Below, in pieces: positions 120 through 58,332 of a DNA stretch of 58,395 bases. Each line of letters starts with the position of its first letter. Positions within the stretch are counted from its first letter, which is position 1. The translations under genes were made by a program, and so were the position numbers. The notes under the pieces were generated by a model that searched no databases, was not told the DNA's origin, and saw only the letters and a list, made by a program, of their open reading frames with translations. This stretch comes from a virus (Duplodnaviria; Caudoviricetes): positions 1 to 58,395 of IMG/VR virus record IMGVR_UViG_3300031772_000043, one strand, 5' to 3'.

Positions 120-1274
120 CTATAAATGGCCCTTCCCATCACGACGCGCGGTGTCTTTCTTGAAGATTACGTTCTGGGTCAGGGTTGATTCAATTCTGCG
201 TGTCAGCTCTTTCTCAGCTTCCGCGATCCAGAGAACAATCTTTTCCTTCAGGTCAGGAGGTGCCGAATCCCACCTAGCTCTAGCTTCCTCCCCTTTAAGA
301 TCTATAGCGCGAGAAAAAGCTTCTGGGAGAATCGGTTCTCCCGGCTTCGGTTCTCTCTTGGGGGCAATAGGCTGAGCTTTCGGTTTGCTAGATTTGTCCT
401 CTGCCTGCTGATTCTTTTCTGCGGCTGCAGGCTCTGACTGCTTAGCAATTTGGTTTAGCGGAAGTCCAGAGTCCGGTCCTCCCGATTCGTCGGCAATTAC
501 CCGAATAGTTTTCCAGTTGTTCTTGAGACTTGTCTTGAACATGCCACTAGTGCCCAAGTTGAAATCAAGCTCTCCAAGCTTGTCCGCTGCCCATTCTTTG
601 GTTGGAAACATGCGGCGAATCTTGGTCCCGTCTTCCAGGAAAAACTTAAAGTGGGAATCACGGGACTTGTAGCTTTTGAAGAACGCTTTGTCATGACCAA
701 CGGGTATTGCGTTGAACAGGTCGAATCCAGCTAAGCCCCCACGTGCATTGGGCTGCAGAATGTAACGCACCTGGACTTGCTTAGATTCCTGTTGCTTGCT
801 CAAGCGCTGAGCCTCTTCTGCGATGATTCGGCCCGAGGTAAAGACTTTCGTGCTGAAAAACGAAGCGGAGCCATCGGCTAGGATGGCCATGTGTTTCTTC
901 ATCGCAGTGAAGTACTGAATCCAGAGGTTGGCCGCCTCCCTCACATCACTCGGTGTTGTCTTGCCTTCAGCTATGGCTTTTAGCTTGGGCACAAAATCGT
1001 TTTCCCACCGAATCTTCTTGTCCTTGGACTTTGGGTCCATCAGTTTTTTGGCGACGGTTACCAGCTCTCTTATCGAGAGAAACGCGTAGCGGTTCACGTC
1101 GCCTACGCCCCGGCCTCGGATACCAGACAAAAACTCAACCACGTTCTTGAACGTAGTAATTAGAGCTACATCAGGAGGCACGGATACAGGCTCAGCATCC
1201 GCAGTACGCAGCCGAGAGAAACAGGCGACCAGCCATTGAGCCCTAGCCAGCTTCCTCAGAATTATTCCATGCAT
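120..1274 (-). CDS. hypothetical protein with basic N-terminal leader, candidate virion-internal protein
   Basis: ~385-aa ORF; GGAG upstream; N-terminus MHGIILRKLARA...RLRTA. Confidence 0.7.
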   Translation of the reverse strand: MHGIILRKLARAQWLVACFSRLRTADAEPVSVPPDVALITTFKNVVEFLSGIRGRGVGDVNRYAFLSIRELVTVAKKLMDPKSKDKKIRWENDFVPKLKAIAEGKTTPSDVREAANLWIQYFTAMKKHMAILADGSASFFSTKVFTSGRIIAEEAQRLSKQQESKQVQVRYILQPNARGGLAGFDLFNAIPVGHDKAFFKSYKSRDSHFKFFLEDGTKIRRMFPTKEWAADKLGELDFNLGTSGMFKTSLKNNWKTIRVIADESGGPDSGLPLNQIAKQSEPAAAEKNQQAEDKSSKPKAQPIAPKREPKPGEPILPEAFSRAIDLKGEEARARWDSAPPDLKEKIVLWIAEAEKELTRRIESTLTQNVIFKKDTARRDGKGHL

Positions 1275-1294
1275 CACCGAAGATAACTCCCTAT

Positions 1295-1309
1295 TTAGTT
1301 TGAAACTAA
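1295..1309. promoter_or_regulatory. perfect palindrome TTAGTTT-G-AAACTAA in a divergent intergenic region
   Basis: 7-bp arms with 1-nt centre, read directly; operator role is inferred. Confidence 0.4.
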
Positions 1310-1404
1310 GGTTCTACGGGCCCAAAAACCGGGTTGGAATGGTAAAGAAATCCAGCTCCGGAAATTTTGGGCGGCCAAGGGTTTAATTGAGAAGGGTTTA
1401 ACGT

Positions 1405-7431: not shown

Positions 7432-7455
7432 ACCCTCACGGGTTATTTGCGTTTC

Positions 7456-8000: not shown

Positions 8001-8008
8001 GCAAAGCT

Positions 8009-9974: not shown

Positions 9975-9975
9975 A

Positions 9976-14231: not shown

Positions 14232-14611
14232 GTATCTTGGAGTCTACAGGAGTTTCAAGTTCCGACTTCAGGACCCGACCCCTGATATGTAGTTCTACTT
14301 CGCACGCAATTCGTATTGTGAAGAGAAGTGGGGAGTATAAGGCTCTGGTTCTCCGGCTATCTCACGACCCAGAATCCTGCTCGCAGCTTTTAGATGAAGT
14401 GCAGGCCACCCTAGAGGAGCACAGGGAACCGGGCTTCGCCAACCCTTACGATGTCACTCTCTTTGCTTGCTTGTTAGCATTCGAAGAGTTAGGGTTGAGT
14501 CTCTGCGTATGGGACACGATGCGTGCAAGGCTCAGAGAGGAACTGAACTGGTCGCGCCTAGCCGCTGTTTCGCAGGCGTCCGTTCTGGTCTCGGTAAAGA
14601 ACTTTAGTTGA
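14225..14611 (+). CDS. hypothetical protein
   Basis: GGAGG RBS before ATG 14225. Confidence 0.6.
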   Translation: MVSILESTGVSSSDFRTRPLICSSTSHAIRIVKRSGEYKALVLRLSHDPESCSQLLDEVQATLEEHREPGFANPYDVTLFACLLAFEELGLSLCVWDTMRARLREELNWSRLAAVSQASVLVSVKNFS

Positions 14612-14747
14612 CAGCAGATACGAGATATGGTCCCAGATCTTCCAGGTCCTGTGGCCGTTCTGCAATCCGACAACGATATCCCCATCCCGTAAATCCTGAC
14701 GAGCTACTAGCCGCCTAATGGCGGCAATAAGACGGCTGTCTATCGGG

Positions 14748-14945
14748 TTAGGGACCACCGCCGCCTCCTGCTCCGTCGCCGCCCGCTCCTGCGTCTCCTC
14801 CAACACCTGGAGTAACATCCAGACCGTCAGCGGGGGAGCCTGCGTAGTCCTTACGCTTCTTATGCTTCTTACGCTTGGCTACCAATGCAAGAGCGACCTT
14901 TTCAAGCCGTAAGGAAAGTTCTAGGATACTAGGGTTTGTTCGCAT
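14748..14945 (-). CDS. small basic/Gly-rich protein with RLEKVA leader
   Basis: MRTNPSILELSLRLEKVALA shares the leader seen in other - strand genes; KRKKHKKRK patch. Confidence 0.55.
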   Translation of the reverse strand: MRTNPSILELSLRLEKVALALVAKRKKHKKRKDYAGSPADGLDVTPGVGGDAGAGGDGAGGGGGP

Positions 14946-15391: not shown

Positions 15392-15772
15392 CTAATTCTT
15401 ACGCGTAGGTCGGTCCGGGGCTGGTTTCTCTTGCGAGGACTCCAGGTCCCGGACTTTTCTTTTGTACATCTTGGACTTTACCTGGGGCGCCCGGTCTCCG
15501 AACGAAAGCTTTCCAGTTGCGTACAAAGCGTCCAGCGTACGCAGAACTTCCAGCGCGCTGTCCAGCTTTGTCTTGACCTTTTCAAGGCGTTTTTGGGCGC
15601 CTTGGTTATTCGAGCGTTCCAGTAAACTCAACACAGATTCCAGGTCTTCAGAAGCCTCCAGCAGACCTAGATGTGCGTTTACGGTGTCTGCCACGAAGCG
15701 GTCAAAGTGAATCTTTGACCCTGCAACATGTAGAGCGACTTGAAGCAGCCTTTCAGAAATTGCTAAACGCAT
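15392..15772 (-). CDS. hypothetical protein with RLLQVA leader
   Basis: 126 aa; MRLAISERLLQVALHVA. Confidence 0.65.
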   Translation of the reverse strand: MRLAISERLLQVALHVAGSKIHFDRFVADTVNAHLGLLEASEDLESVLSLLERSNNQGAQKRLEKVKTKLDSALEVLRTLDALYATGKLSFGDRAPQVKSKMYKRKVRDLESSQEKPAPDRPTRKN

Positions 15773-15866
15773 GTTCGTAGATAACCAAACTCAGACCTGT
15801 CTCCTTTTAGTTAGGGAGTCAAACCGGACTGGTTATTTGTACGTGTTAGACGCATCTTGGTTCTCC

Positions 15867-23134: not shown

Positions 23135-24487
23135 TCAAGCCTCGCGGTATCGAGCCTGAAGATACGCAGCGTTGACAGTATCTCGGCCTGTCTCTCCGAA
23201 CTCCCGATGCAGTGTGATGCGGTTCATGTCGCGCCCCGCCCGGTAGCCCACGTTCGCCGCCCATGCGTCTCGGGCTGCGAGCGTGCGGAAGGACTCAATC
23301 ACGCAGCCTCGCAACTCTTTTTTGACCGTATGATGGATGTGACCGCAGTACCAGAAGCGGTGTAAGGTGGAGCCCCAGTCCTCTGACCTTTCACTGGCCA
23401 TGATTGACTCCAGGTCTCCGTGCTTCTGGTTGTGTCCGTGGGTGACACCAATCAGGTTCTTCCCGAACCGGAACCAATGGAATCTACTCGGGCTCATGTC
23501 GATAGTGACTCTGGGTTCCTTGGTATAGTAGGCGTTTAGCGCCACACTCAGAAACACGGCAGAGTGGTCGTCGTGATTTCCGATTTCGTTGATGACGGTC
23601 ACCGTTTCGTGGTGAGCCAGCGCCTGGTCGATCATGTAGACCATGATCTCTAGCCCGACCTGAAGAACCTTCTGCCAGCGGCCATCCACGTCCAGCGGAT
23701 TTCCCGACCGTGCGGTCTTGTTGTCCTGGCTGTCGGAGTGGAAGAAATCGCCCAAATTTACTACCAGGGCTCGCTTAGTTCGTGGTCCGCGCAAGACCAA
23801 GTCTCGCATGGCGTCGCACATGATTCTCTGCGCCTTGGCTAGGTCGAAGCTCTCACCCGTCTCTGGTGCCCAGGACAGCATCCCGATATGAGGGTCACCC
23901 ATCGGGTAGACACCCAGTAAGTCGTCGGACACCACGCCGGGTGGGGAAGGAATACGACCTTCACGCGCAGGGACTTGCGCAGGTAGATCACGGATCAGTC
24001 GCTCTAGAATCTGCTCTCGGGTCTCGTACTCCTTCTTGGTCTTGACCCATTGCGCGAGAGTATGGCCGTCCCCTGACACGAGAGTGGACACGCCAGCAAT
24101 GGTGTGACCATCCGGAATTTGGTCGGTGAGTTCGCCCTTGGCCTGCGCTGTAGGAGCGTCAATCCACTGCTTGGTCACTGTCCCGAATTCATCTGTTTCA
24201 GAGGAAACTCTCTTGACGTAGTACCCGTCTGGAACAGCCGCCAGCGGCAATTTTTCTACGGGTCCTCGAATAGCCTTGCCTTCGGTCTTTTTTGCCGCCG
24301 CCATTGATCGGAGCAGTGACCATCCGTTACATGAGTCAACATCCGTTCGTGTAACTGCTCCGTTGCTTGCTTTCAGGAAGTCGTCCCTCATCATATCCTT
24401 GACGGAGATGCTAAGGCGTTCGCTGCATTCGATGAGCTGTTGCACCACCCATGCGACGTGTTTGGAAGTCCCTCGGTGCGGCTTCAT
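23135..24487 (-). CDS. calcineurin-like metallophosphoesterase
   Basis: DPH, GDFFH, GNHD, HGH and GHIH motifs. Confidence 0.85.
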   Translation of the reverse strand: MKPHRGTSKHVAWVVQQLIECSERLSISVKDMMRDDFLKASNGAVTRTDVDSCNGWSLLRSMAAAKKTEGKAIRGPVEKLPLAAVPDGYYVKRVSSETDEFGTVTKQWIDAPTAQAKGELTDQIPDGHTIAGVSTLVSGDGHTLAQWVKTKKEYETREQILERLIRDLPAQVPAREGRIPSPPGVVSDDLLGVYPMGDPHIGMLSWAPETGESFDLAKAQRIMCDAMRDLVLRGPRTKRALVVNLGDFFHSDSQDNKTARSGNPLDVDGRWQKVLQVGLEIMVYMIDQALAHHETVTVINEIGNHDDHSAVFLSVALNAYYTKEPRVTIDMSPSRFHWFRFGKNLIGVTHGHNQKHGDLESIMASERSEDWGSTLHRFWYCGHIHHTVKKELRGCVIESFRTLAARDAWAANVGYRAGRDMNRITLHREFGETGRDTVNAAYLQARYREA

Positions 24488-24620: not shown

Positions 24621-25751
24621 TTACGCGCCGAAGAAATCGCTGAAGGTGCCCTTGGGGATCCCGCGCTCCTTGTCCGGCTCGGTTTTCTTGGGACTCTTCT
24701 TCAGCGCTCTCAGGTATCCTACGATTACATCTTTGCGCTTCTGGAGAATCTGTTGCGCCTTCATGACCAGCTCCTGCGCCTTCGGACTCTTCATGACCAG
24801 CTCAGGCTGCTTCTGCGCGAACTGCATTACGCCCAGAGCGCGAGCCGCCATAACGAAGGAACGGTAAGACAGATAGAGAGCTTTCTTCGACTTGGAGTCC
24901 AGGAACTCCCCCAGGTCTAGCTTCTGGGATCCTAGCTCCAAATGCAGAGCTTCCTGGTAGAACTCCTTATTTCGGTTCAATTCAGGATTGATTTTTCGCT
25001 TGCTGTACAGTGCCATGATGTTGTCTTCGAGCGCGCCGGACAACTCAGAGGTAGTACCAAACAGCTCACCGGCCTTGGCCACGAGTAGTCTGCTGATTTG
25101 GTCTACAACTCCTCGCATCTCACGTTCAGCTTCGTTCAGTTGTTGCTGAACTGCTTCAAGCGCAGAAGAGTCTGCTGCCGGGGCTGCTTCTGGAGGAGCC
25201 TCAACCGGAACCTGGGACTGTGCTTTCTGTAGCGCGGCTTGTACCTGGGGGATGACCTTTGCAAGCTGTTCCATGGCTTTGTAAAGGCGATCTCGATAGC
25301 GAGGATCGTTCTTCGCGCTTTCTACCCACTCGTGATTCTGCAGCCGAGAGCCTAGCATCGCCACGGTCAGAAAACGTTCAAACGCCATGAAGAAGTACAT
25401 GGCGGCAGTGCTGCCGCGAGAGGATTGACTCAGCGTCTTCCAGAGCGCTTCGGAGTCTGACTTTACGGTGTCTAGGGCCTCGGTGTCTACGACCCCCGAA
25501 TCCGTAACTACGCGTGCTATCTGTTCACTGATCGCGTTCAGCGCTTTTTGTCCTTCTTCTGGCAGAGAAGGGAGAAGAGCCTTGAACGCACGGGTGAATT
25601 TCCCCCGGACGTCTAGCAGGACCTTCTTAGAACGCTCGGCCATTCGGTCGATCATCTCTTCTTCAGTAGCCAGGGCTACCTTACGGAGACGCTCAACCAA
25701 ACTCATTTTTTGCGCGACCTTACGGAGACGCCGATCTAGGTCTTTTCGCAT
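24621..25751 (-). CDS. helical hypothetical protein with duplicated RLRKVA leader
   Basis: MRKDLDRRLRKVAQKMSLVERLRKVALA. Confidence 0.7.
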   Translation of the reverse strand: MRKDLDRRLRKVAQKMSLVERLRKVALATEEEMIDRMAERSKKVLLDVRGKFTRAFKALLPSLPEEGQKALNAISEQIARVVTDSGVVDTEALDTVKSDSEALWKTLSQSSRGSTAAMYFFMAFERFLTVAMLGSRLQNHEWVESAKNDPRYRDRLYKAMEQLAKVIPQVQAALQKAQSQVPVEAPPEAAPAADSSALEAVQQQLNEAEREMRGVVDQISRLLVAKAGELFGTTSELSGALEDNIMALYSKRKINPELNRNKEFYQEALHLELGSQKLDLGEFLDSKSKKALYLSYRSFVMAARALGVMQFAQKQPELVMKSPKAQELVMKAQQILQKRKDVIVGYLRALKKSPKKTEPDKERGIPKGTFSDFFGA

Positions 25752-25774: not shown

Positions 25775-26248
25775 GTGATGAGGCTAGATAACCCCAACAC
25801 AAACCTCTATAATAGCATTGAAACTGTTGCTTTTACCGGCACCCAAAAAGGGATGACTGAGGCTCAGTGTCGGAAGATAAGGGAATTGCTTCAGAAAATG
25901 AAGCCAAGGGTGTTGATACATGGTGATTGTGTGGGCGCCGACGCTGTTGCGCACGAAATTGCCCAAGATCTCGGTATTGAGGTCCACATACGGCCAGGTA
26001 ACCTGAAAAACAAAAGAGCGTTCACTTCAGGTGCCAAACTTCTGGCCCCTCCTGAAAACCCGTTGGATAGGAATCCAAAGATGGTGGACGCGGCGCAGGC
26101 CCTGATAGCGTGTCCTTCGGGCAAAGAGCAGGAACTGAGGTCTGGAACCTGGGCCACCATTCGGTACGCCAAAAAAGTGGATACCTTACATTGGATAGTG
26201 TACCCTGACGGAGAAATGGCGGGTCCTTGGGGTTTCGAACCCTTCTGA
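25775..26248 (+). CDS. SLOG-superfamily (YspA/DprA-like) protein
   Basis: AFTGT, HGDCVGAD, RN..MV and SGTWATIRYA. Confidence 0.75.
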   Translation: MMRLDNPNTNLYNSIETVAFTGTQKGMTEAQCRKIRELLQKMKPRVLIHGDCVGADAVAHEIAQDLGIEVHIRPGNLKNKRAFTSGAKLLAPPENPLDRNPKMVDAAQALIACPSGKEQELRSGTWATIRYAKKVDTLHWIVYPDGEMAGPWGFEPF

Positions 26249-40793: not shown

Positions 40794-41060
40794 TTACCTG
40801 CGCTGATCCAGCACGGTAGCGTTGGCCATTGACGCCTTCCATGCCTTTTCGACTAACGTATTAACCTGAGTTAGGCCCTCTACCATCTCAGGGTCTTTCG
40901 CTACCTTCCTCAGCTTAGAAACTGCTAATGCAATTTGCATGAGTAGGCCGGAAGCAGGCCCACCCATCATCGCGTTATTGCCCGCAGCCCGCTCCTGGAC
41001 TTTCAGCTTCTTGAGGGTTCTAGCCGCTCGGAGTAGTCGTTTTTGTAGGTCTGAACGCAT
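40794..41060 (-). CDS. small protein with RLLRAA leader
   Basis: MRSDLQKRLLRAARTL; internal KLRKVA. Confidence 0.65.
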   Translation of the reverse strand: MRSDLQKRLLRAARTLKKLKVQERAAGNNAMMGGPASGLLMQIALAVSKLRKVAKDPEMVEGLTQVNTLVEKAWKASMANATVLDQRR

Positions 41061-41073: not shown

Positions 41074-44000
41074 CTATATCCCACTCAGATCTATATCCAG
41101 ATCTTCGCTGTTGATTGCGTCCAACGCCGTTTGTACTCTAGGCATGATTGTCTCGTAGAGAGACAGCAGGTCCGGACGCTTCTTTTGTAGAAGAAGCTTG
41201 AAGGCTAGAGCCGAGGGCGAATTGTTCTTCGTGCAGAACTCGATGGCCTTCTCGTACAGGGCGTGTAGAGCAGCCTTGTCAGGCTTTGGACGTGGTGTTA
41301 CGGGCGTTGCAGGGGCGGAGACTGCCGGGGCCGCTGTCGGGGGCTTAGGCGCGTCTACGGTCTCCTCTACAAACGGGACCTCATCCAGAAGCCGCTGCTT
41401 CTCTTTCGGCGGCAGGGGGAGAGCCTCTATGACCGTCTTGAGTTCCTCTGGAGTATATGCGCGCAAGGACACTATCGCCCGGACTCGCTTAAGGCGACGT
41501 ATACTGTCATCCTTGTCCTGAGTCAGAAGACCTTTCAGATTCTCCAGGCGACTGGGCTTAGAAGGAGGAGCGGGCGGGGCCTCTTCAAGCGCCTTTTTCA
41601 GCGCGTTGATGGCGTCTGAAGCCTCGCCCTTTGTCCACGGCGGGGCCCCCAGGTCGGTTACCTTGGGGCGTCCCAGCTTCTTCAGCTCGGCTTCAAGTTC
41701 CTGTACCTTAGCCGTCTGCTTTTCAGTAGCCGGATCGCTACGCCACTCGCCCTTGGGACGTGCAGGTGCAGCAACCGGAGGCGCGATAGCACCCAGAGGG
41801 TCTTGTCCCGCCTGAACCTGTCTAAGATAATTGGCAAGTCCCTGTAGGTACTTGATAAAGCCCTGCTTAGCGGTGGAGGACAGATCCTTGGACTTGATTG
41901 CCTTAGCTACTTCGCTATAGGTCAACCCCTTCAGCCCTGTCTCAAGCTCTCCGTTGAGAGTGAGCAGTTCTTCGGGCGTCAGACCCGCCTGCCTTGTCAC
42001 GTAGTCTAGGATTTCTTCCGTGACCTGAATATTGCCCAATTCCTTTGGCAGTCGACCCCTGGGCTTCTGTTCTGAAGGTGCGGGAGCCACTGCGGGCGCA
42101 GGCGCAGCGACCGGTGCAGGCATCCGGAGAATTTTACCCAGTGCTAGAATAGACCCGTCTTTGGCCACAGGGACGAAAGCTAGGTCTTCTGCCTGGATAT
42201 CTTTCTTTACCTGCAATGAGATGTAGCCCGCATCCGCTGCCTGAAGAAGGGCATTCTTAGCGGCATCCGGAGACACTTTTCCTTCAAGACCCTGTACCAC
42301 GTCAGCAACGTTGAACCCGCTCTTGGTCTCATTTGCCTTCACTGCATCAAGGACCTGAACCACAACAGCTTGGTCAACCTTTTTTCGGATGGTCGGAGGA
42401 GGCCCCTTGGGCTTTTTCTCTTCCTTAGGCACGCTCTTTGGTTCGGCAGCCGTTGGTTCTGGCAACTGGATACCCGGGATATCCGCGTCCTGCAGACCAT
42501 TTTCGTGCATGTACTGAATCAGGTCATCAAACAGAACTGCTGCAGGTCCCTTCAACGGGGCCCTAACCTTCTGAAGTCCGCTCTTCTGCACTGTCCGCAA
42601 TAGCGACAGGGCGGTACTAGAATCCTCGGCGTCCAGTTCGAACTCCGTAGACATCATGTTCCAGATGTTCCGCTGCAGTCGGGCCTTGGCGGTATCGCGC
42701 TGCGCGGGTTCCTCTTCGTCGTCCGGAGTGACCTCGTCCGACGTAAGGAAATCCACCGCTTGCTGCAACTCAGGAGAGAACGTCTTTCCTCGTCCTCTTA
42801 GGGTGTCTGTAAGCTCTTCTTCCTCTTCTTCGGAGACGGAAGCGGGTTCCGGCATATCTGCCGCTAGCTCGTCTGCGTTGAAGTCGGGCTCGTTTTCTTC
42901 TACAGCCTTTAGATTTGGAGTTCCATCCTTGGCAAAGTAGGACTCACGACCCCCTAGAGGTGGAATAGATACTCCACGGAAATCTGGCAAATGATCTGCG
43001 TTTACGAGACCCTTCTCCAGGAAGAATTCCGCGATGATTTCAACCACATTTTGAAGGACGGTGTCTTGAGTCTTTGCGGATGCTTGCTCCAGCGAAATGC
43101 TTTTTAGAACGCGAACTGCGTCCGCAAACATGTTCTTCTGGTCGTCATCCAGCTCGTACTCCTTTGCCATCTCATCAAAGATCGTACTACGTAGTTCTTT
43201 ACGCTCCGCCTCTTCTGGAACCGGAGGCTTGGCCTCTAGAATTTCCTGCAGCGATGGAACGGCTTCCACCGGGGCTTCTTTCGCTTGCGCCGGATGGCTG
43301 AATTCAATCCCAGTCAAAGAACTGAAGTCGGGGTGCCCAGGAACACCAGAATCGAATTCTGCCCTGTTCTTGCCCAGGTGTACGAGAATCTTCTTTACGA
43401 GAGGCGTGTATGCGGGACGCTTATCCAGTAGGGCCTGAAAGATAGAGGCCGCAGTTCTGCCCTCTTCCATGTGAAGCTGAACGCTGACCATGATCTTGTA
43501 GGCAGTCTCTGCCTCGGACCTATTCAATCCCAGGGCCTTGACCATTACCTCGAAACTAGGAGTTCGCTCACCCGCTGCTGGCGAAATTTCTTCCTTCTGT
43601 TTCTCTGTGGCTGGCTTGATTTCATCCTGCTGCGTCGGAGAGGCGGGGGGAGCGCCTTCGCCGAACACCTTGTCGAGCCCGTAATTGTCTCGCATGTTCG
43701 CGAGACCCTTAGTCCTGTTCAGCCGATTCAGATAGTTCTTCATCTGCTGGAAGAGGTAGGTGAGGCTGTAGGGCTTTGCGTTCTTCTTATCCAGGGCAGA
43801 GAACTCTTCACCCATGGCGTCCAAGTCCTTACCGCTTTCGGCAAGGTCAGACATGCGTACAAGCATGTCTAGAACACGCTGTTCCGTGGCGGATACGGGC
43901 TCAATGCCGCCTTCAGTCCCCGCCTCCTCCTGCATCTGCTCTTGCAGAGAGCGGATGAACGGAGTCATCTGCTGTTCGAGAGGCTTTGTGTTGTCGAACT

Positions 44001-47000
44001 CTTTGGTTGTCGGAAACTTATGTGACCCATCGTAGAGGGACACGAGATTCCACTTGCCGTTTTCGGTCTTCAGATCGGAGTGCAACGAAAGGAAGAACGC
44101 CAAGCGCTTTGCCAGACTGAGAGCGGACGAGGCGTCTTCGCTCTTAGACGCCTTCAGTCCCTTCAGGATCTCGGGCATGGTCTTGCCACGGAGCATGACA
44201 CGAATGATATCGTGAAGGGTTTTGGCAGCTTCTTTGTTTCCCAAAGAAGGTTGAGCGTTTAGAAGGGACTCGACCGCCGAATCGTTGCTCGACAGATCCA
44301 GAGTCTTCTTCAGAATCTCTACCGGTTTGACGATAGAAACTCGATTCATATTTGTCAGGTCCCAGACTTCTGGAGATACCTTGATGTCCTCTCCATTGTC
44401 GATCAGGAACTCAGCAATAGACCGAATGACCTCGTTCTGGTCGGGAAGCGTCTGAGTCTCCGAGAAACCCGGCTTGAAGTCATGGATACTTTTACCCGCA
44501 GCAAAGTGCTTTCTTAGCGCCGACAGTAAGAGACCGAAGTTTTCAACGCGCTTCTGCCAGGCCTTCTTGGACTCTTCGGGATCCAGATGCAGCGAAACTG
44601 ACTGAAGCTCTTCAGCAAGCGTGCGCTCAGTATTTGTGGACAGCTCTGTTCCTTGGGGCTTGAATCGTACCTTGTCCCTCATATCCGCAATTTCGTCTGC
44701 GGACAAATCGGAAGTAACCTTATCGGCCTTCCCGCTGGGTGGTTTGATTCTGGTACTGTCGGGTTTCGACTCGATCGGTGCAGGTTCTGCCTTGGGCTTA
44801 GGAGCGAACTTTTCCGGAGCAGGCTGGTAAGGCTTGCGCGTGTCCTTTTCAACTCCTGGTCCCCACTCCACGCTCTCTTCTCCGGGCTTAAGAGAGCGGG
44901 GCGGCGAGTACCCGGGTCCTTTGACGTCGTCCTTACTCGGCAGTTCGAACATGTTTTCGACTGCGTAGCTGCCATCCCCACGAACCAAGTCGTCTCGATC
45001 CTGAAGGAAATTTCTTACGTTTTGGAGCAGACCCAACTCCTTGTTGGAGTTGTGATTCTTTAGGTGCTGTTCTAGCTTTTGCTGAAGAGGCTCAATCTTA
45101 GATTTGAGTTCTTCGCGCTTGGTGTCAACCGCGTCCTCTTGCTTGCGCAGAAGCTCCGTGAACTGTTGCTGCTGCTTGCGGATTTCCTCGATCTTTTGCT
45201 TTAGCTGCCGAAGGCCTTTGCGCACTTCCGCTTCAGCTTGGCCAACGATCTTTTCTCTCAAAGATCTCAGAGAGTCACGAGCTTCTTTGGACTCGGCCTC
45301 CAGGTCGGCGTAAGCCTCGTCAAGGTCTGCTCCCTTAGCGTCCTTCAAATACGCGTAGTTCTGAAGCTTCTCTTCTTTCCAGATGGCGTCAGCGCGCTCA
45401 GCAGGATCTTCAATCGCATCCACGTCTTCGGTATCGAAGACGTCAGAGATAGAACCCGACTTGATTGCAGCTAGCAACTCTCCGAGAAGCTTAGTCTCCT
45501 TCAGCTTCAGGGCCAGCTCTTGCGCACTTTCAGGTCCCGCCTGAGAAATAGCCTGGTCTCTTAGCTCTTCGCGGGCTTGTAGTGCGTCTTTACCGCTCTT
45601 CTGCAGTGTTTGAATCTGGGCCTTGGTGTTGGAGAGCGACTCTTTTAGTGCGTCCAATTCTGCGCGCAGACCGACCGATTTCTCGTCCAGGAGCTTGACG
45701 CCCTTTTCTGCTACGCGGTCTACATCCTTCTGCCTCTGATTGACGAGATCGTGAATTGAGCCTCCGGACTTGGCTGTGGATTCCAACTCCGTCATCAAGG
45801 CTTTGAGGAGTTCAGGATCTGCTTTGGGGAAACTCTTCTGTATCTGCTGGAAGAGAGGCACCTTAGGAGGTTCGACTCTAGGCTTCTTAGGCGTGAGAGC
45901 TTCGTTTCTCTCCATCGCACTAAGTTCGTCCCTAAAAGACGACTTCCCCACATGTTTTGTGTTGTACGCGACAAAGTCAGGGTACTTAGACTCGTAGAAG
46001 CTCTTGCGCTTCTCCAGGTCTGCATCAAACGCCGTCTCGAACTTCTTTAGGGCTCGCTCGTAGACTTTACGTATTACTGCCATAGCCTCTGGGGCAATTT
46101 GTCCATCTTCATCCACTTCAACGCCGAACTCGTCGGCTGCAATTTCCTGTAGACGTGCCCCGAGTGAAGACGCAGGGCGTTGACCTTCCGGAAGAATGTC
46201 GTGACTCTTATCCTCGTCGTCCTGGTCTCTACGCAGGTTTCCGGGGATGGCCCACATCCATCGCAGAATGTTTTCCTCGTCTTGAGGGAACTTAGACCTA
46301 TTAGCTCCCAGCAGACCGTTAAGGACGTGTTGAAACCCTGCTGCGTTTTCTTCCGACGCCTGATTTAGGTAGGATAGGAACTTGTCTTGAGCAAGGCCCT
46401 TTTCTCCCTTGCCTAGAAGCACCGCACTAAAGGGGTTTAGCATCCGACTCAGACCCTTGTCTGTTTCGGCCTTTTCCTTCAAAATTTCGACTAGGGTGTT
46501 TTGGGCCTTTTCCTGCTTGACCTTCAGAGCATTCATTTGGCTCTTGTATACTTTTGGGTCTTCCTTGCTGTAAGAGAAGGGGGGTCGAGCGGCGATCTCC
46601 TGGATAGAAAGACGCTTGCCCTCGGCGCCCACACCCATAATTCCTTCCAGAATGGTGCGCTCTTCTTCGTTCAGTCTGGGGTCATCCTCTACGGTTAGAA
46701 CTTCTCCCACCACGTCCAAGAGCTTGTCAATGTTTTCCTGGGCCAGGGCCTGCTCGGCGATAGACTCTGGATCCGCCCCTTCTTGGGCTGCCAGATCCAT
46801 AGGAGACAGGGCCTCTTCACCCTCCTCCGAGTCGGAGCCCGGAGCCGACGGGCTCACAAATCTCTTAGACCGAATTGTCTGGGTATAGCGAACCGTGACC
46901 GTGTCTCCTCCATTTTGAGGAGAGAACTCCAGGGTTCCTCCGAAAGGGTTAGCTCTATATTGGTTTTTCCCTACAACGCTCTGGCTTTCCAGTCCTGGTG

Positions 47001-48987
47001 CTTCGATTAGAAATGTCTTGTCGAGATTTTCCCTACTAAACCAGATGTTTCCAGAAGAAGTCGCAAAAAGAAATGAATTGGGATCCTTGGCGACTTTTGC
47101 TTTCGTTTCGACACTCCACTTGCCTTCAACCCTGTTTAGCTTGACGCCTGTTTCTGGATCCGTAACTGAGATTTGAGCGGTGGGGTGTGCCTTTTTGAGG
47201 GGGATCAAGACGTGTTTGCTTTTGTTCTCGACTTGGCCCTCTTTGTTTTTAGGGAGTCTCGTCTTGAACGCGATACCGCGGGCTGACGTAAAGTCATGTC
47301 CTGCTGAGTCTTGCACTTTTAGGTCTTCAAGTCTGAACCCTGTTACACGTTCTCCTCCTGAGACCAGCTCAACGAGACCTCCGTCTTCAGGGATTGTGAT
47401 GCTACTGACTCCCGCCCTTGAGACGTTTTCTACCTGCTGTTCTCTTTTGTACTTATCAAAGACGCTCTTAAGAGCGTTTGTCACGCGTCGATACACGGTG
47501 GGAGCCGCGAACACCCGAAAATCCTTGGGGTCAGGTGTCTCTTGCTTATTCCTTTTGTCGCGGTCGAACTCCAGAATGGCTTGTCGAAATGCATCAAGCG
47601 CCACAGTCTGTAGGTCTGCAATTCCAACACCCGCTTTTTCGAACACATCACGGACAGCCCGGAATGGTACAGGCTTCCCGGAGAAGTACGAAGCTCCGTC
47701 AAGAATCCATTTGTTCAATAGTCCCGTGTAGTACTTAGAAAAGTCTACAATTTCTCGGTCTAGTTCGTTGGCCCCCTGGCGGACCTTTTTGATGTACTGA
47801 AGAGTAGGCCGATCTAGACTTCGGCCCCCTGCTTCTCCAAACTCAGGAAAATCTTCGTCTTGTGCCTCCGACTGCATTTCGTAGACACGTTCAGAAATCA
47901 AGCTAGCCAGCGGATAAAGCCGCCCCAGTTTAGGGGCTAACTCAGCTTCTACGAAGTCCCGAGCCAAGCTCCTGTTGTCGGGGCTGTCGTCAGCTTCTCT
48001 CTTGGCCAGAAGGTGCTCCAACTTCATAAAGTCACTAGCATCTGGGAGATTAGAGGAATCCGACTTGCTCTCTTCGAGTTCAGCAACTTCGTCCTCGATT
48101 AGAGGAACGATAGTCTCCGATACGAACGCGGGATTTGGGTGGTCCAAAATCGCTGTCCAGAGATTTTGTGCTCGCGCCTTTAGCCCCTCTACGGCCTGAT
48201 ACTCTGCCTTTGGATCTTTTTCCAGGGTAAGTTTCTTCGTATTCTTTCCAGGAATGAAGTACTCGACACGATAAGTGTTTCCGCTGGCAGAAGCGTCTCC
48301 AAAGTGCAGGAAGCCATCAGCGTAGCTGTATGCAACTTCGCCCGGCCCAGGCAGATTCGTGGGCTTTTCGTTCTTTAGGCTGGTGAGCTTTGTTCGAAGC
48401 TCTTTCCCTGTCTTAGAGTTGGTGACCTTCAACCCCTGCGTCAGATCAACACCCTTCTCCAATTTAGCACGGAGCGAGTTGTTGACGGAAACCTCTTTTA
48501 CGAGGGGCTTCCACTTGAACCAGGCTTCGTTCAAGTGCCAGAGACTTTCCTTGCTTTCCATAGGACGCTTAGGTGCGGCCTTGGGGCTTTCCTCGTCCCC
48601 GTCCTCGTCGTCCTCACCTTCTGCTTCGGATTCTTCATCCTCGTCATCCGGAGGGGCCTCCAGCCACAGGTAGTCGATCTTGACGCGCCGCCCTACGTCT
48701 TCTGGCGAGAAGAAGACTGTGTTCTCCAAGACGAAAAAGTGTGACTTGCCAAAGGTCTGGTCCTCGGACCGGGCAAACTCTTCATGAGTCTTTAGCTCAG
48801 AGATATCCAAGGAGTCAGGCAGAACGTTTGGGTTCTGCAGCTGCACCTCGCCGCCTTCGGGGATGACAACCTTTTCTGTCTCTTTTTGCGGAGCGCTTAA
48901 CGACTCAGTCGCCAGCTTTGTGAAGTCTGGATACTGCTGAGTGTATCGGGTCACTCGAACAATTCGATTGGCAATTTTGCGGGGCAT
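41074..48987 (-). CDS. giant 2637-aa multidomain protein with sigma70-like regions, beta-repeat modules and long coiled coil
   Basis: Uninterrupted ORF; region-2-like and two region-4-like segments recognised by eye. Confidence 0.75.
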   Translation of the reverse strand: MPRKIANRIVRVTRYTQQYPDFTKLATESLSAPQKETEKVVIPEGGEVQLQNPNVLPDSLDISELKTHEEFARSEDQTFGKSHFFVLENTVFFSPEDVGRRVKIDYLWLEAPPDDEDEESEAEGEDDEDGDEESPKAAPKRPMESKESLWHLNEAWFKWKPLVKEVSVNNSLRAKLEKGVDLTQGLKVTNSKTGKELRTKLTSLKNEKPTNLPGPGEVAYSYADGFLHFGDASASGNTYRVEYFIPGKNTKKLTLEKDPKAEYQAVEGLKARAQNLWTAILDHPNPAFVSETIVPLIEDEVAELEESKSDSSNLPDASDFMKLEHLLAKREADDSPDNRSLARDFVEAELAPKLGRLYPLASLISERVYEMQSEAQDEDFPEFGEAGGRSLDRPTLQYIKKVRQGANELDREIVDFSKYYTGLLNKWILDGASYFSGKPVPFRAVRDVFEKAGVGIADLQTVALDAFRQAILEFDRDKRNKQETPDPKDFRVFAAPTVYRRVTNALKSVFDKYKREQQVENVSRAGVSSITIPEDGGLVELVSGGERVTGFRLEDLKVQDSAGHDFTSARGIAFKTRLPKNKEGQVENKSKHVLIPLKKAHPTAQISVTDPETGVKLNRVEGKWSVETKAKVAKDPNSFLFATSSGNIWFSRENLDKTFLIEAPGLESQSVVGKNQYRANPFGGTLEFSPQNGGDTVTVRYTQTIRSKRFVSPSAPGSDSEEGEEALSPMDLAAQEGADPESIAEQALAQENIDKLLDVVGEVLTVEDDPRLNEEERTILEGIMGVGAEGKRLSIQEIAARPPFSYSKEDPKVYKSQMNALKVKQEKAQNTLVEILKEKAETDKGLSRMLNPFSAVLLGKGEKGLAQDKFLSYLNQASEENAAGFQHVLNGLLGANRSKFPQDEENILRWMWAIPGNLRRDQDDEDKSHDILPEGQRPASSLGARLQEIAADEFGVEVDEDGQIAPEAMAVIRKVYERALKKFETAFDADLEKRKSFYESKYPDFVAYNTKHVGKSSFRDELSAMERNEALTPKKPRVEPPKVPLFQQIQKSFPKADPELLKALMTELESTAKSGGSIHDLVNQRQKDVDRVAEKGVKLLDEKSVGLRAELDALKESLSNTKAQIQTLQKSGKDALQAREELRDQAISQAGPESAQELALKLKETKLLGELLAAIKSGSISDVFDTEDVDAIEDPAERADAIWKEEKLQNYAYLKDAKGADLDEAYADLEAESKEARDSLRSLREKIVGQAEAEVRKGLRQLKQKIEEIRKQQQQFTELLRKQEDAVDTKREELKSKIEPLQQKLEQHLKNHNSNKELGLLQNVRNFLQDRDDLVRGDGSYAVENMFELPSKDDVKGPGYSPPRSLKPGEESVEWGPGVEKDTRKPYQPAPEKFAPKPKAEPAPIESKPDSTRIKPPSGKADKVTSDLSADEIADMRDKVRFKPQGTELSTNTERTLAEELQSVSLHLDPEESKKAWQKRVENFGLLLSALRKHFAAGKSIHDFKPGFSETQTLPDQNEVIRSIAEFLIDNGEDIKVSPEVWDLTNMNRVSIVKPVEILKKTLDLSSNDSAVESLLNAQPSLGNKEAAKTLHDIIRVMLRGKTMPEILKGLKASKSEDASSALSLAKRLAFFLSLHSDLKTENGKWNLVSLYDGSHKFPTTKEFDNTKPLEQQMTPFIRSLQEQMQEEAGTEGGIEPVSATEQRVLDMLVRMSDLAESGKDLDAMGEEFSALDKKNAKPYSLTYLFQQMKNYLNRLNRTKGLANMRDNYGLDKVFGEGAPPASPTQQDEIKPATEKQKEEISPAAGERTPSFEVMVKALGLNRSEAETAYKIMVSVQLHMEEGRTAASIFQALLDKRPAYTPLVKKILVHLGKNRAEFDSGVPGHPDFSSLTGIEFSHPAQAKEAPVEAVPSLQEILEAKPPVPEEAERKELRSTIFDEMAKEYELDDDQKNMFADAVRVLKSISLEQASAKTQDTVLQNVVEIIAEFFLEKGLVNADHLPDFRGVSIPPLGGRESYFAKDGTPNLKAVEENEPDFNADELAADMPEPASVSEEEEEELTDTLRGRGKTFSPELQQAVDFLTSDEVTPDDEEEPAQRDTAKARLQRNIWNMMSTEFELDAEDSSTALSLLRTVQKSGLQKVRAPLKGPAAVLFDDLIQYMHENGLQDADIPGIQLPEPTAAEPKSVPKEEKKPKGPPPTIRKKVDQAVVVQVLDAVKANETKSGFNVADVVQGLEGKVSPDAAKNALLQAADAGYISLQVKKDIQAEDLAFVPVAKDGSILALGKILRMPAPVAAPAPAVAPAPSEQKPRGRLPKELGNIQVTEEILDYVTRQAGLTPEELLTLNGELETGLKGLTYSEVAKAIKSKDLSSTAKQGFIKYLQGLANYLRQVQAGQDPLGAIAPPVAAPARPKGEWRSDPATEKQTAKVQELEAELKKLGRPKVTDLGAPPWTKGEASDAINALKKALEEAPPAPPSKPSRLENLKGLLTQDKDDSIRRLKRVRAIVSLRAYTPEELKTVIEALPLPPKEKQRLLDEVPFVEETVDAPKPPTAAPAVSAPATPVTPRPKPDKAALHALYEKAIEFCTKNNSPSALAFKLLLQKKRPDLLSLYETIMPRVQTALDAINSEDLDIDLSGI

Positions 48988-53540: not shown

Positions 53541-53542
53541 AG

Positions 53543-53920: not shown

Positions 53921-53926
53921 AAGACC

Positions 53927-54588: not shown

Positions 54589-55046
54589 AGTCCCTCCTCC
54601 AGTCTCAGCTTAGACCGAAGTTCGTTGTTGGCGTCAGGCCCCGTATCCAACTGCTCAGTAAGAGGGATGTAAGGGTCGTCAGCCCGGGTAACAGGCACGG
54701 TTCTAGATAGCGACCCGAGTAAATTTGGGTGCCCAGGAATAGGATCGGTTTGAACCTCTACTCGGATCCGCATGTCGGTTTGAACTGGAGGGTGACTGAA
54801 CTGGAAGACAAAATCTCCTTCACTGCTCTCCCCGTTGCCAAATCTTCGGTCGAAGTCTATCGTCAACAGCACCTGATTGCGGTATAGGAGAGAACAGGTA
54901 CCTTCTCTGACGTAACCCGGAAAACCAAGCTCTTGGTCGGGATCCAACACGTATACAGCGACCAATACCGTATCTCCGTCCGCGATATACTCGGCGCGGG
55001 CGTCCAAGACCAGCTTGGCTGGGACAGGTATGGTGGGAGGGGCCAT
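54585..55046 (-). CDS. hypothetical beta-rich protein (putative virion protein)
   Basis: 153 aa, coupled. Confidence 0.6.
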   Translation of the reverse strand: MAPPTIPVPAKLVLDARAEYIADGDTVLVAVYVLDPDQELGFPGYVREGTCSLLYRNQVLLTIDFDRRFGNGESSEGDFVFQFSHPPVQTDMRIRVEVQTDPIPGHPNLLGSLSRTVPVTRADDPYIPLTEQLDTGPDANNELRSKLRLEEGL

Positions 55047-55460
55047 TTATAGGATGGGAGTAGGGGCACGGAACGTAGTTCCCTGGGACCCTGTGGTTAC
55101 GTTTCTGTTCCGGTAAGTCACTGTCAGGGGATCGCTGATCAAGAGAGTCACATGTTCTACTTGCGTGGCAGCAGCGGCATCGTAGGAGAACGTAACTGTC
55201 AACTCGTACTGCGCAAAGGCAGCCGGTGTCAGGTCAAGTGCGCCTGTGTACAAGAAGGAACTGCCCGGGGCCAAGGCCAGAAAAATCTCTCCCAAGTTTC
55301 CTAGCGCGAGGTCTTTAGCTAGGGCCCCCGTAGTCGGATCGACTCTGAATATTTCACATAGGGGATTTGAGTCTGGTGTTACCAATGTGCCATTCGTTCG
55401 TTTGGAAACGAGGCTAACTGCCACAAACTGCTGGTCGCGATGTGCTAAAATTTGGGGCAT
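55047..55460 (-). CDS. hypothetical beta-rich (Ig-like?) protein
   Basis: 137 aa, coupled. Confidence 0.6.
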   Translation of the reverse strand: MPQILAHRDQQFVAVSLVSKRTNGTLVTPDSNPLCEIFRVDPTTGALAKDLALGNLGEIFLALAPGSSFLYTGALDLTPAAFAQYELTVTFSYDAAAATQVEHVTLLISDPLTVTYRNRNVTTGSQGTTFRAPTPIL

Positions 55461-57109
55461 TAGACTGCCTCCTCAAGGGTCGTAGGTAGTTCGTCATCAT
55501 CGATACTGCGATTAAAGCTGCGGCTCAGAGATACTCGCTGCTCCATCTTATCGATTAGAGAATTCACATTCTCAATAGCCTTTTCGATGTCGCTTCGGGC
55601 TTTGATGACTCTAGGCAAACTGGCGGGTTTCGGAAAGTACAGAGCAGCTCCAGTTTTGGTCTTCATGACTTCCGGAGTCTGTCCCATTGCTGCCGCAAAA
55701 GAGGACTTCTTGGACGATAGAATCATGACCAGGTGGTCTCTAAAAGAGACACCGTTCTCGTCTTGCTGGTCGTCACCAGGTGCGTTAGCCCATAGAATGA
55801 TCATACGGTATTTGTCATCGAACTCCACAAAACCGGAAAATCTGGACTTACGGATCAGTTCTAGCGTCAGCCGAGCAATATGCTTTCCAATGAACTCGTC
55901 CTCCTTTAGCTCCACCGAAGGAAACGCGTCATCAATCTGATCTGGGGCGAAAGGAAGGCGCACGAGCCGTACGATACTTGTGTCGTTTTCGCCGGGCTGG
56001 GACACACTTTCTAGTGCTGCCTGCTCCGCCTCATACTGCTCTGCACCTCTTCCAACTCGTACCAATCCAGCTTGGGCCTGAAATAGCTCTTCTAGCCTCT
56101 GGGCAGCTCTTTCTAGCTTTTTCCGATCCGTGGAGATAAGTGTCGCCTTGCTGCCCTCCAGCGACCCGCTGACTACTCCATGAGTCTTCTCTTGTATCCG
56201 CTTCAAAACGTGGGTCCACGTCCCTGGTGTGCCGCCCCCAACATTTGACTCGTCGAATACCAGGTTTATTTGGTAAGATTCTGGTGTAGTCAGGATGTTA
56301 GCTGGATACTCGTACTTGGTGTTGTCTTCCATCTTCCAGTCAGGCCGCACACCTGTTACGGCTCTGACCAGGGCAGGAACGTCGGATTCCGCGAGTGCGT
56401 ACCACCGCTCTCCATCTACGGAAGGCGAATGGAGGTGGTACAATGAAATTCGTGGACCCTCGGCTGCCGTTCCGGTGGAACGGTTAAACAGAGACGCTAC
56501 TTCGTCGTAACGCTTGTTCAAAAACTCGGTCTGCTGTGTGCCTGCTCGGGCTTCGTCGTTCCCCACTTCATAGTGGGCTCCCTCTGTAGCGGTCTTCTTG
56601 ACAGCCGAAATCAAGTCTTCAACAAGACGCACTAACTCCGCACCTGTGTGCTGCGTGACTACCCTTCCCAGGTTGTCTCGAATGTGCTCTGAGTCATGAA
56701 GACGCAGCTCATACATCTTCTCACGTAGACGACGCAAAGGCTTGTCTAGAGCTTGCGCCTCTCCACCAGAGAATCCTGGGTCATTGTTCTCAAAGGACCC
56801 TCCGCTAGTGTTCTTGACCCAATCATAACGCTTGCGAAAGCTGGGTAGCTTAAATCCTCTCGACTCAAGTCCGCTGCGCAATTGGTCTAGAAGATGTACC
56901 GGATTCTCCGTAACTGGCAGGGATTCGGACACTAGATTGTTGTGGGAGTACAAAATAGAGACGAGGGTACTCATGTCCCTATCGAAAAGGGAGGGATCCC
57001 CGACTACGTTCTCCAAGGCGGATAGGCGCACCTTTGGATTCGTCAGAACCTCATAGGCAAGCTTCTGAAGGAAAATAGCACGCTTCTCAAGTAAAACTCG
57101 GGCTGACAT
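55460..57109 (-). CDS. hypothetical protein
   Basis: 549 aa, coupled. Confidence 0.7.
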   Translation of the reverse strand: MSARVLLEKRAIFLQKLAYEVLTNPKVRLSALENVVGDPSLFDRDMSTLVSILYSHNNLVSESLPVTENPVHLLDQLRSGLESRGFKLPSFRKRYDWVKNTSGGSFENNDPGFSGGEAQALDKPLRRLREKMYELRLHDSEHIRDNLGRVVTQHTGAELVRLVEDLISAVKKTATEGAHYEVGNDEARAGTQQTEFLNKRYDEVASLFNRSTGTAAEGPRISLYHLHSPSVDGERWYALAESDVPALVRAVTGVRPDWKMEDNTKYEYPANILTTPESYQINLVFDESNVGGGTPGTWTHVLKRIQEKTHGVVSGSLEGSKATLISTDRKKLERAAQRLEELFQAQAGLVRVGRGAEQYEAEQAALESVSQPGENDTSIVRLVRLPFAPDQIDDAFPSVELKEDEFIGKHIARLTLELIRKSRFSGFVEFDDKYRMIILWANAPGDDQQDENGVSFRDHLVMILSSKKSSFAAAMGQTPEVMKTKTGAALYFPKPASLPRVIKARSDIEKAIENVNSLIDKMEQRVSLSRSFNRSIDDDELPTTLEEAV

Positions 57110-57928
57110 TTATGGCCTCTTGGGTTTCTTGGGGCGCACCGTAGTCCAGGCTCCCAAATCGTATCCGTCTGAACACAGCTGGTCAAACAGCTTGCGCAAC
57201 AGGCGAGAGGCGGGCTTAGACATAGTGTAGCCGTCGTAGCACAAGGAATTGTGTAGTTCGCGTACAGACCGCTGTAGGGAGGTCTTAGCGTGAAGTGAGG
57301 AGGAGCTAGCATTGGACTTGTACGCGGGCACGTCTTGTCGCGCACACTCACTTAGCCAGAATTTAAGAGCCAGGGCCCATTGATCTTCAATTCCCTTGGG
57401 GGCTAGGATAGTGTCACGACGTTTAGGGTCACGAAGAACCCTGTTCCATAACCGAATAGCCTCAGGTGAGGCTCCTTCTGGGGGCTTGTTCAGCTTAGGG
57501 GACGCTCCGTTTGCTTGGCGTGCTAACCGCAACTTGGTCGCTGCAGACACAGTCGAGGCGGCTGCAATGACCTGTTTTACTTCTGCCTGAAGGTTCAGTG
57601 GCATCAAGGGTCGATTCAAAAAGCCTTTTTCTTTGAGAAAAGACGTAGAATCTTCGAGGTCCTGGGGCTTCCAAACCAGAGCTATTGCCTCTTGCAGGTG
57701 GTCTAGGCGCACCTTGTTCTTGACGTAAACTTTGGCCATATTGCGCACTTGATCGTCATTAGTAGTGCCGATAGTACGCAATCTACCCAAGAATTGAGTG
57801 TAGTATTCTTGTGGCAGAACACTGAAAATCTTCAGCCAGCCCTGGTCTTCCTCAAGAATATCCCAAAGGAGATGCTTGGGAGCGTATAGGATCGCCTTCT
57901 TTTGCTGGTCTAGAGGTAGGATATCCAT
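57110..57928 (-). CDS. hypothetical protein
   Basis: 272 aa, coupled. Confidence 0.7.
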   Translation of the reverse strand: MDILPLDQQKKAILYAPKHLLWDILEEDQGWLKIFSVLPQEYYTQFLGRLRTIGTTNDDQVRNMAKVYVKNKVRLDHLQEAIALVWKPQDLEDSTSFLKEKGFLNRPLMPLNLQAEVKQVIAAASTVSAATKLRLARQANGASPKLNKPPEGASPEAIRLWNRVLRDPKRRDTILAPKGIEDQWALALKFWLSECARQDVPAYKSNASSSSLHAKTSLQRSVRELHNSLCYDGYTMSKPASRLLRKLFDQLCSDGYDLGAWTTVRPKKPKRP

Positions 57929-58332
57929 TAGATGAACTCCCTGAGAACCTGGAGTTCCGCACGTGCCTCTTCGACCTGTGCCAAAGCGGTGGCGAGTGCC
58001 GCATTAGGCTTGGCGTGTAGGAGACTTGCGGCCTGCACGATAGTGGCTGCCCCTATCTTGGAGCCGCCCTTCTCTAGAATTCTGGAGATCTCGTTTCGGG
58101 TAGAGGTTTGGCTCTTACCGGTGGCAACAACGTGGGCCACCTTCTGCGCAAGAGATACCGCCGTATGGTCTGGTAGGGTAGTAACCAGACTACGAATCTC
58201 CGCGCCGAGCATGTGAAGCAGCTTCCGGGACGGTGGAGCCATCACACGTTCAAGGTCTGCTTGTACCACCTGTCGCATCCGACGGGCAGCAAGGAGCATC
58301 TGCTTCTCTGCGTTAGTAAGGGTAGAGGTCAT
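57928..58332 (-). CDS. hypothetical Ala/Arg-rich protein
   Basis: 134 aa, first visible gene of the - strand block. Confidence 0.65.
   Translation of the reverse strand: MTSTLTNAEKQMLLAARRMRQVVQADLERVMAPPSRKLLHMLGAEIRSLVTTLPDHTAVSLAQKVAHVVATGKSQTSTRNEISRILEKGGSKIGAATIVQAASLLHAKPNAALATALAQVEEARAELQVLREFI

Follow-up and report, generated by a model that had tools for sequence, protein, structure and literature searches.

An N-terminal helix on unrelated proteins of an uncultured jumbo phage, a candidate head-loading tag resembling the tail of a scaffold-like protein

The internal proteins IPI-III and Alt of phage T4 are described as carrying an N-terminal capsid targeting sequence of 10-20 residues, which interacts with the prohead core and is cut by gp21 (PMC7411985). 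In phage P1, DarB's N-terminal ~30 residues are reported to be enough to bring a reporter into the capsid (PMC9024508). The scaffolds of P22 (gp8) and 80alpha have, in the account given in PMC7552001, a C-terminal helical element that binds the capsid, and CpmB of SaPI1 uses the same capsid site. For SPN3US and phiKZ-like phages, which have a prohead protease, many head proteins are described as extended at the N-terminus, in two cases by a short stretch of 20 or 24 residues, and the cleavage sites given for SPN3US end in Glu: ASE-20, AVE-75 and ALE-111 (PMC10052503). Here, a short basic amphipathic helix is described that is found at the N-terminus of unrelated proteins encoded in the IMG/VR virus record IMGVR_UViG_3300031772_000043. 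The window analysed is the entire stored record of 58,395 bases. The genome is estimated at ~390 kb because CheckV rates this record as 15% complete, and the source is taken to be an uncultured jumbo phage. An original prediction, made from the window, had interpreted the helix as a capsid-targeting leader on otherwise unrelated proteins.

A complete relative of 392,328 bp in IMG/VR (G002) was used for comparison. Its 287.5-351 kb region is collinear with the window in the inverted orientation, and orthologues are mostly 30-80% identical. The head module of G002 runs straight on into the counterpart of the - strand block of the window, and this block is therefore seen as the structural strand.

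A conserved terminal motif on unrelated proteins

The tag consensus, counted from Met1, is M-R-x-D-L-x-x-R-L-x-[KRQ]-V-A. The strict pattern [LI]xxRLx[RKQ]VA has four matches in the six-frame translation of the window, all on the - strand (25713-25739, 25674-25700, 14892-14918 and 15734-15760) and each 10-44 codons from the stop before it. With a looser pattern the only additions are 41022-41048, in the gene at 40794, and 48949-48975, in the gene of a giant protein, and no pattern match away from N-termini was found in the six frames. Among 86 curated proteins (18,569 amino acids, aa), the strict pattern occurs four times at N-termini and not elsewhere (0.018 expected, 2000 shuffles) and the loose pattern six times at N-termini and not elsewhere (0.25 expected from residue shuffles), a test that is circular because the patterns were written from the matches. 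Residue 5 is where the motif begins in 15392, 24621, 40794 and the giant protein; in 14748 it begins at residue 10. The tag is missing from the + strand, as had been noted for the enzymes encoded there, with 4 of 20 - strand genes and none of 66 + strand genes carrying it (Fisher p=0.0023).

An unbiased comparison was made of residues 2-17 of all 86 N-termini, locked by position. The pair 24621 and 40794 came first with a score of 32, where the null had its 95th percentile at 27-28 and reached maxima of 31 and 38; the three best pairs connect 24621, 40794 and 15392 in a closed triangle. The bodies of the tagged proteins are indeed unrelated, as first proposed; neither BLASTP nor family scans found a link among them.

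The product of 24621..25751 (- strand), P3, is a 376-aa all-helical protein encoded upstream of a gene for an Mre11/SbcD-like DNA repair exonuclease (23135..24487, - strand; phrog_704, E 1.1e-98) that is itself without the tag. P3 starts with two tandem tags (MRKDLDRRLRKVAQKMSLVERLRKVALA). Copy a, LDRRLRKVA, is at residues 5-13 (25713..25739, - strand), and copy b, LVERLRKVA, at residues 18-26 (25674..25700, - strand). The duplication at the DNA level that had been reported is present, each copy holding the 15-nucleotide (nt) repeat ACCTTACGGAGACGC in exact form, at 25717-25731 and 25678-25692, respectively. Three further matches to the 15-mer each have three mismatches; the total of five compares with 1.6 expected and is reached by 4 of 100 shuffles, and the matches outside the exact pair are within chance. 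The P3 family has 23 members of 34-100% identity, in which conservation reaches 90% or more at M1, R8, L9, L22, K24 and A26. Every full-length member starts with MRxDLxxRL or a near variant. No match to P3, or to a 549-aa protein, was found by tblastn against GenBank phages. At the other end of P3, the peptide G-[IV]-P-K-G-T-F-S-D-F-F (24621-24680) is conserved across the family, with a second copy in several homologues, and from its sequence may be a docking peptide. It may resemble clamp-binding boxes.

The 126-aa helical protein of 15392..15772 (- strand) has the tag ISERLLQVA at residues 5-13 (15734-15760). In an alignment of nine sequences no more than nine columns are invariant, M1, R8 and L9 among them. 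An exhaustive profile search identified seven relatives with E <= 1e-10, and no related loci of this gene were found in viral contigs. In a word-based protein search 15392 and 40794 each returned the query alone, which says little because the same search missed a 50%-identical orthologue in a second relative, G001.

Tag and body are distinguished in AlphaFold2 models. In that of P3 the tag is one helix (residues 3-27) with a predicted local distance difference test (pLDDT) score of 54-75, against 86-95 for the body. In that of 15392 a tag helix at residues 2-18 (pLDDT 64-69) is followed by a break at 19-22 and a core hairpin (85-89). The models thus show the tag as a helix of its own, predicted less confidently than the body and parted from it by a short break. 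A fold search with the P3 model gave no match with E <= 0.001 in PDB or BFVD, the best rows being generic helical rods.

The 65-aa protein of 14748..14945 (- strand) has its tag, LSLRLEKVA, at residues 10-18 (14892-14918), followed by poly-Lys and a Gly/Asp-rich tail. Both the open reading frame (ORF) and this architecture are kept in G001 (L002 760-1017) and in G002 (335228-335506; BLASTP E 2e-4). Downstream of this gene and overlapping it is a small ORF (14558..14758, - strand) that is winged-helix-like by eye and has no family match. It probably begins at a GTG near 14758, and the G001 counterparts of both ORFs overlap by 4 nt. The ORFs of 14558-14945 overlap in different frames through a GC-rich stretch, which is Gly/Asp-rich in one and Glu-rich in the other.

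The fourth carrier is an 88-aa protein starting MRSDLQKRLLRAARTLK (40794..41060, - strand; tag 41022-41048), encoded directly after the giant gene. Its best position-locked match is to P3. Neither G002 nor the protein database yielded an orthologue. The G001 gene at 59058 was considered as an orthologue and rejected, being a 117-aa gene that follows the capsid gene.

The giant protein itself (41074..48987, - strand) starts with IANRIVRVT (48949-48975), which fits the loose pattern only, and is excluded as a carrier; its G002 orthologue begins MALNTAKRIMRKAS. It is 2637 aa in the window and 2813 aa in G002 (296869-305310), at 45% identity, and has no family match beyond helical ones below threshold. 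The shared leader that had been proposed therefore holds for 24621, in two copies, and for 15392, 14748 and 40794, and is not confirmed for the giant protein or the weaker versions that had been put forward with it. With a hidden Markov model (HMM) of the motif, 120-1274 scored -1.8 bits and 57928-58332 scored -0.4, and 49005, 55460 and the giant protein were not among the matches listed, which went down to -2.0.

R8 and L9 vary little or not at all in the P3 and 15392 families down to 32-34% identity. Because these and other tag residues are conserved in both families, the tag is considered to be under selection. The Arg codons at conserved sites vary between the copies (CGT, CGG and AGG), as do those of Leu (CTC, CTT and CTG), which indicates that the constraint acts on the protein. 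A repeat or promoter at the DNA level was rejected as the cause of the motif for the same reason. The 8-mer GTTATCTA upstream of two of the carriers might suggest a DNA or RNA footprint at gene starts, but the differing codons do not fit such a footprint.

Head genes of relatives, the scaffold-like tail and the proposed role of the tag

An HMM made from the five copies in the window only was scanned over the six frames of G002 (547,597 aa). The top matches are the two copies in the P3 orthologue, and the next three are in non-orthologous ORFs, each at the N-terminus: 285037 (MRPDLEKRFLKVA, 12.5 bits), 284778 (MRPELKTRILRVA, 11.1 bits) and 273774 (…ELQRRLIRVA, 10.3 bits). The maximum from the reversed sequence was 8.6 bits. 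A plain position-specific scoring matrix (PSSM), with no composition correction, places the same three ORFs at ranks 3-5 of 110,528 positions. Their PSSM scores of 16.0-17.5 only equal the reversed maxima of 16.7 and 16.4, and significance therefore comes from position and not from score. The first ten residues hold ~5.5% of positions, so that by our own arithmetic the probability of three out of three matches falling there is ~2e-4.

It could be argued that the likeness is a chance or compositional one between amphipathic N-terminal helices. The patterns were written post hoc, the PSSM scores of the new instances do not exceed those of reversed sequence, and position-locked N-terminal similarity across all of G002 is not significant (30 pairs versus 20.8 +/- 5.2). 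Against chance stand the near-invariance of R8 and L9 across two families, the position of the three best non-orthologous matches and the presence of the motif at a C-terminus as well, described below. This explanation, with the footprint, is disfavoured and regarded as quite unlikely. The carriers are a small set of proteins; the tag is not a proteome-wide habit.

The new instances in G002 are placed among the head genes. The tagged gene at 273750 (112 aa) abuts the large terminase gene (274072-276114; phrog_17415, E 5e-116), which is followed by genes for the portal (276959-279319; phrog_16240), a head maturation protease (279319-280050; phrog_18299, E 3.5e-55), a helical scaffold-like protein (280079-281197), a virion structural protein (282257-282964; phrog_16710) and the major head protein (283548-284678; phrog_2522, E 4.8e-60). 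The three genes directly after the capsid gene (284778, 285037 and 285389; 89, 119 and 220 aa) all begin with the tag, and in the third protein poly-Lys follows it. The same arrangement of tagged genes after the capsid gene is found in G001. In 11 loci containing a capsid gene (152,100 aa in six frames) there are nine matches above 6.5 bits, where the null reaches 6.4. All nine share the strand of the capsid gene, eight of them at a distance of 3-8 residues from a Met and the ninth at the C-terminus of the scaffold-like protein. The carriers are co-oriented with the structural genes. There are at least four non-orthologous tagged families in G002 (273750, 284778, 285037 and 285389) and four tagged proteins in the window, and from these sequences the tag appears to be spread over at least seven families. 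The proposal of a modular N-terminal tag on unrelated proteins is therefore supported, as the tag is conserved in orthologues and recurs on non-orthologous proteins of relatives, always N-terminally. In several relatives a gene of ~550 aa, homing-endonuclease-like by eye, lies between the capsid gene and the small tagged genes (L034, L035, L036 and L039, about 7200-8900), and in L041 and L042 (4754-7169) inserted ORFs interrupt the capsid gene.

The scaffold-like protein of the relatives is helical, 372-599 aa long, and encoded between the head protease and capsid genes. It has no family in PHROGs or Pfam, and in the ESM Atlas there was no usable match, the structural rows having a template modelling score of <= 0.28 by query. 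Its most conserved part is a tail core, RLxKV[AS], at the C-terminus (…KRLRRVAKRIVLLAYLRSKSL in G002, …KRLNKVSKRVLLLAYLRRKSL in G001 and …ERLRKVSKTLVTLRYL… in L037). Among six scaffold-like proteins that are 21-29% identical, 8 of the 18 invariant columns are within the last 19 residues. These are R, L, V, K, L, Y, L and S, in the pattern R-L-x-x-V-x-K...L-x-Y-L. The C-terminal element of the P22 scaffold is basic.

With an HMM made from N-terminal copies only, the last 40 aa of the scaffold-like protein rank first of 605 G002 C-termini, at 10.3 bits compared with 5.2 for the runner-up. The tails of relatives score 12.3, 7.4, 7.4, 5.8 and 3.1 bits with the same HMM. In the distant L043, in which the capsid protein is 48% identical, a 561-aa protein is in the scaffold position and its C-terminus scores -2.2 bits; no tagged N-terminus turned up at that locus. 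The tail comparison is a lead with good numbers and not a blind test, because it was made after the tail had been seen. It bears on the question, raised with the original prediction, of whether the scaffold has the same motif, which in these relatives is found at the C-terminus of the scaffold-like protein. A second helical protein of the head module, ~310-330 aa (G002 281269-282234; L034 3491-4444; L035 3687-4679; L037 2080-3009), has an N-terminus, MAK-x-[DN]-A-x-ALRAAR-x-KR[LI]A, that is conserved, basic and helical and does not fit the tag.

The motif is therefore real, restricted to termini, conserved, present on unrelated bodies, enriched in the head module, and common to the tag and the scaffold-like tail. 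By analogy with described phages, the N-terminal helix may be a head-loading tag that copies the scaffold-like tail, a tentative reading, the likeliest of those considered, with somewhat less than an even chance of being right. The helix, usually locked to residues 5-13, would serve as a portable address tag. In this clade of ~390-kb phages the scaffold-like protein ends in a tail with the same core, R-L-x-K-V-[AS]. This tail may dock on the scaffold core or on the major capsid protein at its inner face, in the manner of the C-terminal elements of the P22 and 80alpha scaffolds, and cargo with an N-terminal copy would be co-assembled into the procapsid. What we infer is binding to the capsid or scaffold, packaging, delivery to the host and, if it happens, removal of the tag by the head maturation protease. 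For the capsid-targeting function that had been predicted, the support is circumstantial and consists of the tagged genes beside the capsid and terminase genes and of the core shared with the scaffold-like tail. The cleavage after [RK]xA that had been predicted along with it found no supporting evidence, and the proteases in the cited systems cut after Glu.

Several observations weigh against a head-loading tag. The PSSM scores of the new instances, and that of the scaffold-like tail (15.1), are no higher than those of reversed sequence, and the G002-wide comparison was not significant. The scaffold-like label comes from position and helical composition only, and the head module lies outside the window, so that the link to a scaffold rests on the genomes of relatives. 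The counterpart of 15392 in G002 is a 35-codon ORF and 40794 is missing there; these two carriers are dispensable in that genome. P3 is placed with the Mre11-like nuclease among replication genes, and this context, with the GIPKGTFSDFF peptide, suits a repair or replisome adaptor no less than it suits cargo. The P3 tag is conserved like the body, unlike a disposable propeptide, and by eye no conserved cleavage site after the tag was seen in the P3 and 15392 alignments or the capsid loci.

Some of these features would be expected if the helix were a docking or oligomerisation module for a partner other than the capsid, such as DNA, a replication or repair hub, a chaperone or AAA+ unfoldase, or another copy of itself in a homotypic coiled coil. 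P3 is co-transcribed with the Mre11-like nuclease in a replication block and has the conserved C-terminal FSDFF peptide. Poly-Lys after the tag, in 14748 and in the 220-aa post-capsid protein, suggests nucleic acid binding; the 3-4 hydrophobic spacing read from the alignments fits a coiled coil; and an AAA ATPase gene (16621-17883) is near 14748 and 15392. However, docking of this kind leaves unexplained the clustering of non-orthologous carriers beside the capsid and terminase genes, and also that the best C-terminal match among 605 is the scaffold-like protein. It is possible, but on balance doubtful.

The tag could also be read as a degron for timed proteolysis or unfolding, recognised by the head protease or by an AAA+ machine of host or phage, on the scaffold, which has to be cleared, and on short-lived regulators. 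Scaffolds of protease-bearing phages are degraded, as described for T4 (PMC7411985). A head maturation protease gene is present in this clade, and the fixed distance of the tag from Met1 suggests that a free N-terminus is read. On the scaffold-like protein, however, the motif is C-terminal and not N-terminal. We know of no degron of this sequence. A degron is considered improbable.

If the helix is a head-loading tag, it provides a sequence rule for telling which proteins are brought into the host by an uncultured giant phage, and genes that lie dispersed between replication genes may be part of the virion programme. Copying the docking helix of the scaffold would be a simple mechanism, and may explain how large phages recruit varied cargo. 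It would also supply a short portable peptide with which to bring foreign proteins into capsids. The structural proteins of this phage group mostly match no known family. A stronger form of the head-loading proposal is a scaffold-mimicry addressing code, in which any protein that starts with a copy of the scaffold C-terminal helix at residues 5-13 is loaded into the procapsid. Such a code is conceivable, though we would not presume it. It would allow the packaged, and possibly injected, proteome to be read from sequence alone. The loaded set would include P3 as a DNA-repair-associated adaptor, 14748 as a poly-Lys DNA-coating protein, and small helical proteins whose genes are remote from the head genes and would be driven by a promoter-like element of their own, GTTATCTA. 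Even if the tag docks on a different hub, it marks out a small interaction network, so far undescribed, in this phage group.

The upstream element and the genome setting

The 8-mer GTTATCTA is found 34 nt upstream of the P3 start codon (25785..25792, - strand) and 5 nt upstream of that of 15392-15772 (15778..15785, - strand). These are its only exact copies in the window. There are seven in G002, at 115925, 321038 and 332338 on the + strand and at 268330, 258382, 159110 and 15871 on the - strand. Wherever a gene or ATG is visible, the element is 3-48 nt upstream of a co-oriented start. Four cases have the form GTTATCTA-N3-5-ATGCGT, and from their sequence these look like genes with leaderless mRNA. 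The element is a candidate phage promoter element for lone genes on the opposite strand. In a search for a shared late promoter only GTTATCTA was found, and it is absent upstream of the capsid, portal and other head genes examined.

The + strand of the window carries nucleotide-metabolism and replication genes. These encode a dUTPase, a 5'-3' exonuclease, a DnaB-like helicase, a helicase interrupted by a Hint/LAGLIDADG intein, a PolB-exonuclease-like protein, an N6/N4 methylase and the AAA ATPase. The - strand block (40233-58332) and the few lone - strand genes have almost no family matches. For 22 - strand ORFs, the nuclease at 23135-24487 is the single match in PHROGs, and nothing in Pfam is above the curated cut-offs.

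The intein-containing helicase (28249-30975, + strand; ResIII/Helicase_C) is split by a Hint domain and a LAGLIDADG homing endonuclease, and its 561-aa G002 orthologue aligns as two blocks on either side of the insert. Three tRNA genes, Gln-TTG, Gln-CTG and Ser-TGA, are located at 37986-38144 and 39437-39525 on the + strand, and the listed ORF 37969-38328 is a spurious translation of tRNA genes. An ADP-ribosylglycohydrolase-like ORF (18317-18637, + strand) is only 106 aa, while the counterpart in G002 has 299 aa and can be aligned no further than the first 79 residues. The copy in the window may be truncated or broken.

Comparison with described systems

In the literature covered on capsid targeting, scaffold C-terminal helices and jumbo-phage propeptides, with subscription journals outside the coverage, no shared motif of this kind is described. 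One close likeness is to the T4 capsid targeting sequence, which, as described, is also a short N-terminal peptide on unrelated proteins of a large phage with a prohead protease and a scaffold core. The sequences are unrelated, and the T4 tag is cut by gp21, whereas no cleavage site is evident here. The present tag also differs in that it would copy the C-terminal tail of a scaffold-like protein, in that some of its carriers are among replication genes, and in being known from genes alone. The DarB signal of P1 is likewise N-terminal and, at the length reported, comparable to the double tag of P3. It is described for a single protein, whereas several families are involved here, and the likeness is one of description and not of sequence.

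As in the accounts of the P22 and 80alpha scaffolds and CpmB, a conserved helical element is found at the end of a scaffold-like protein, and the same element is present on second, different proteins. In the CpmB system, as described, the element is C-terminal in both proteins, whereas the copies on putative cargo here are N-terminal and on at least seven families. The comparison with P22 and 80alpha is drawn from position and sequence, with no sequence or family match in PHROGs, Pfam or the Atlas. The propeptides of SPN3US are defined, in the source cited, by cleavage sites ending in Glu, and the tag described here by a shared address sequence. What may be new is a fixed register counted from Met1, an occurrence in at least seven families and an identity with the scaffold-like tail. 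In its kind, by analogy, the tag would be an already known one, working in the manner of the capsid-targeting signals of T4 and P1.

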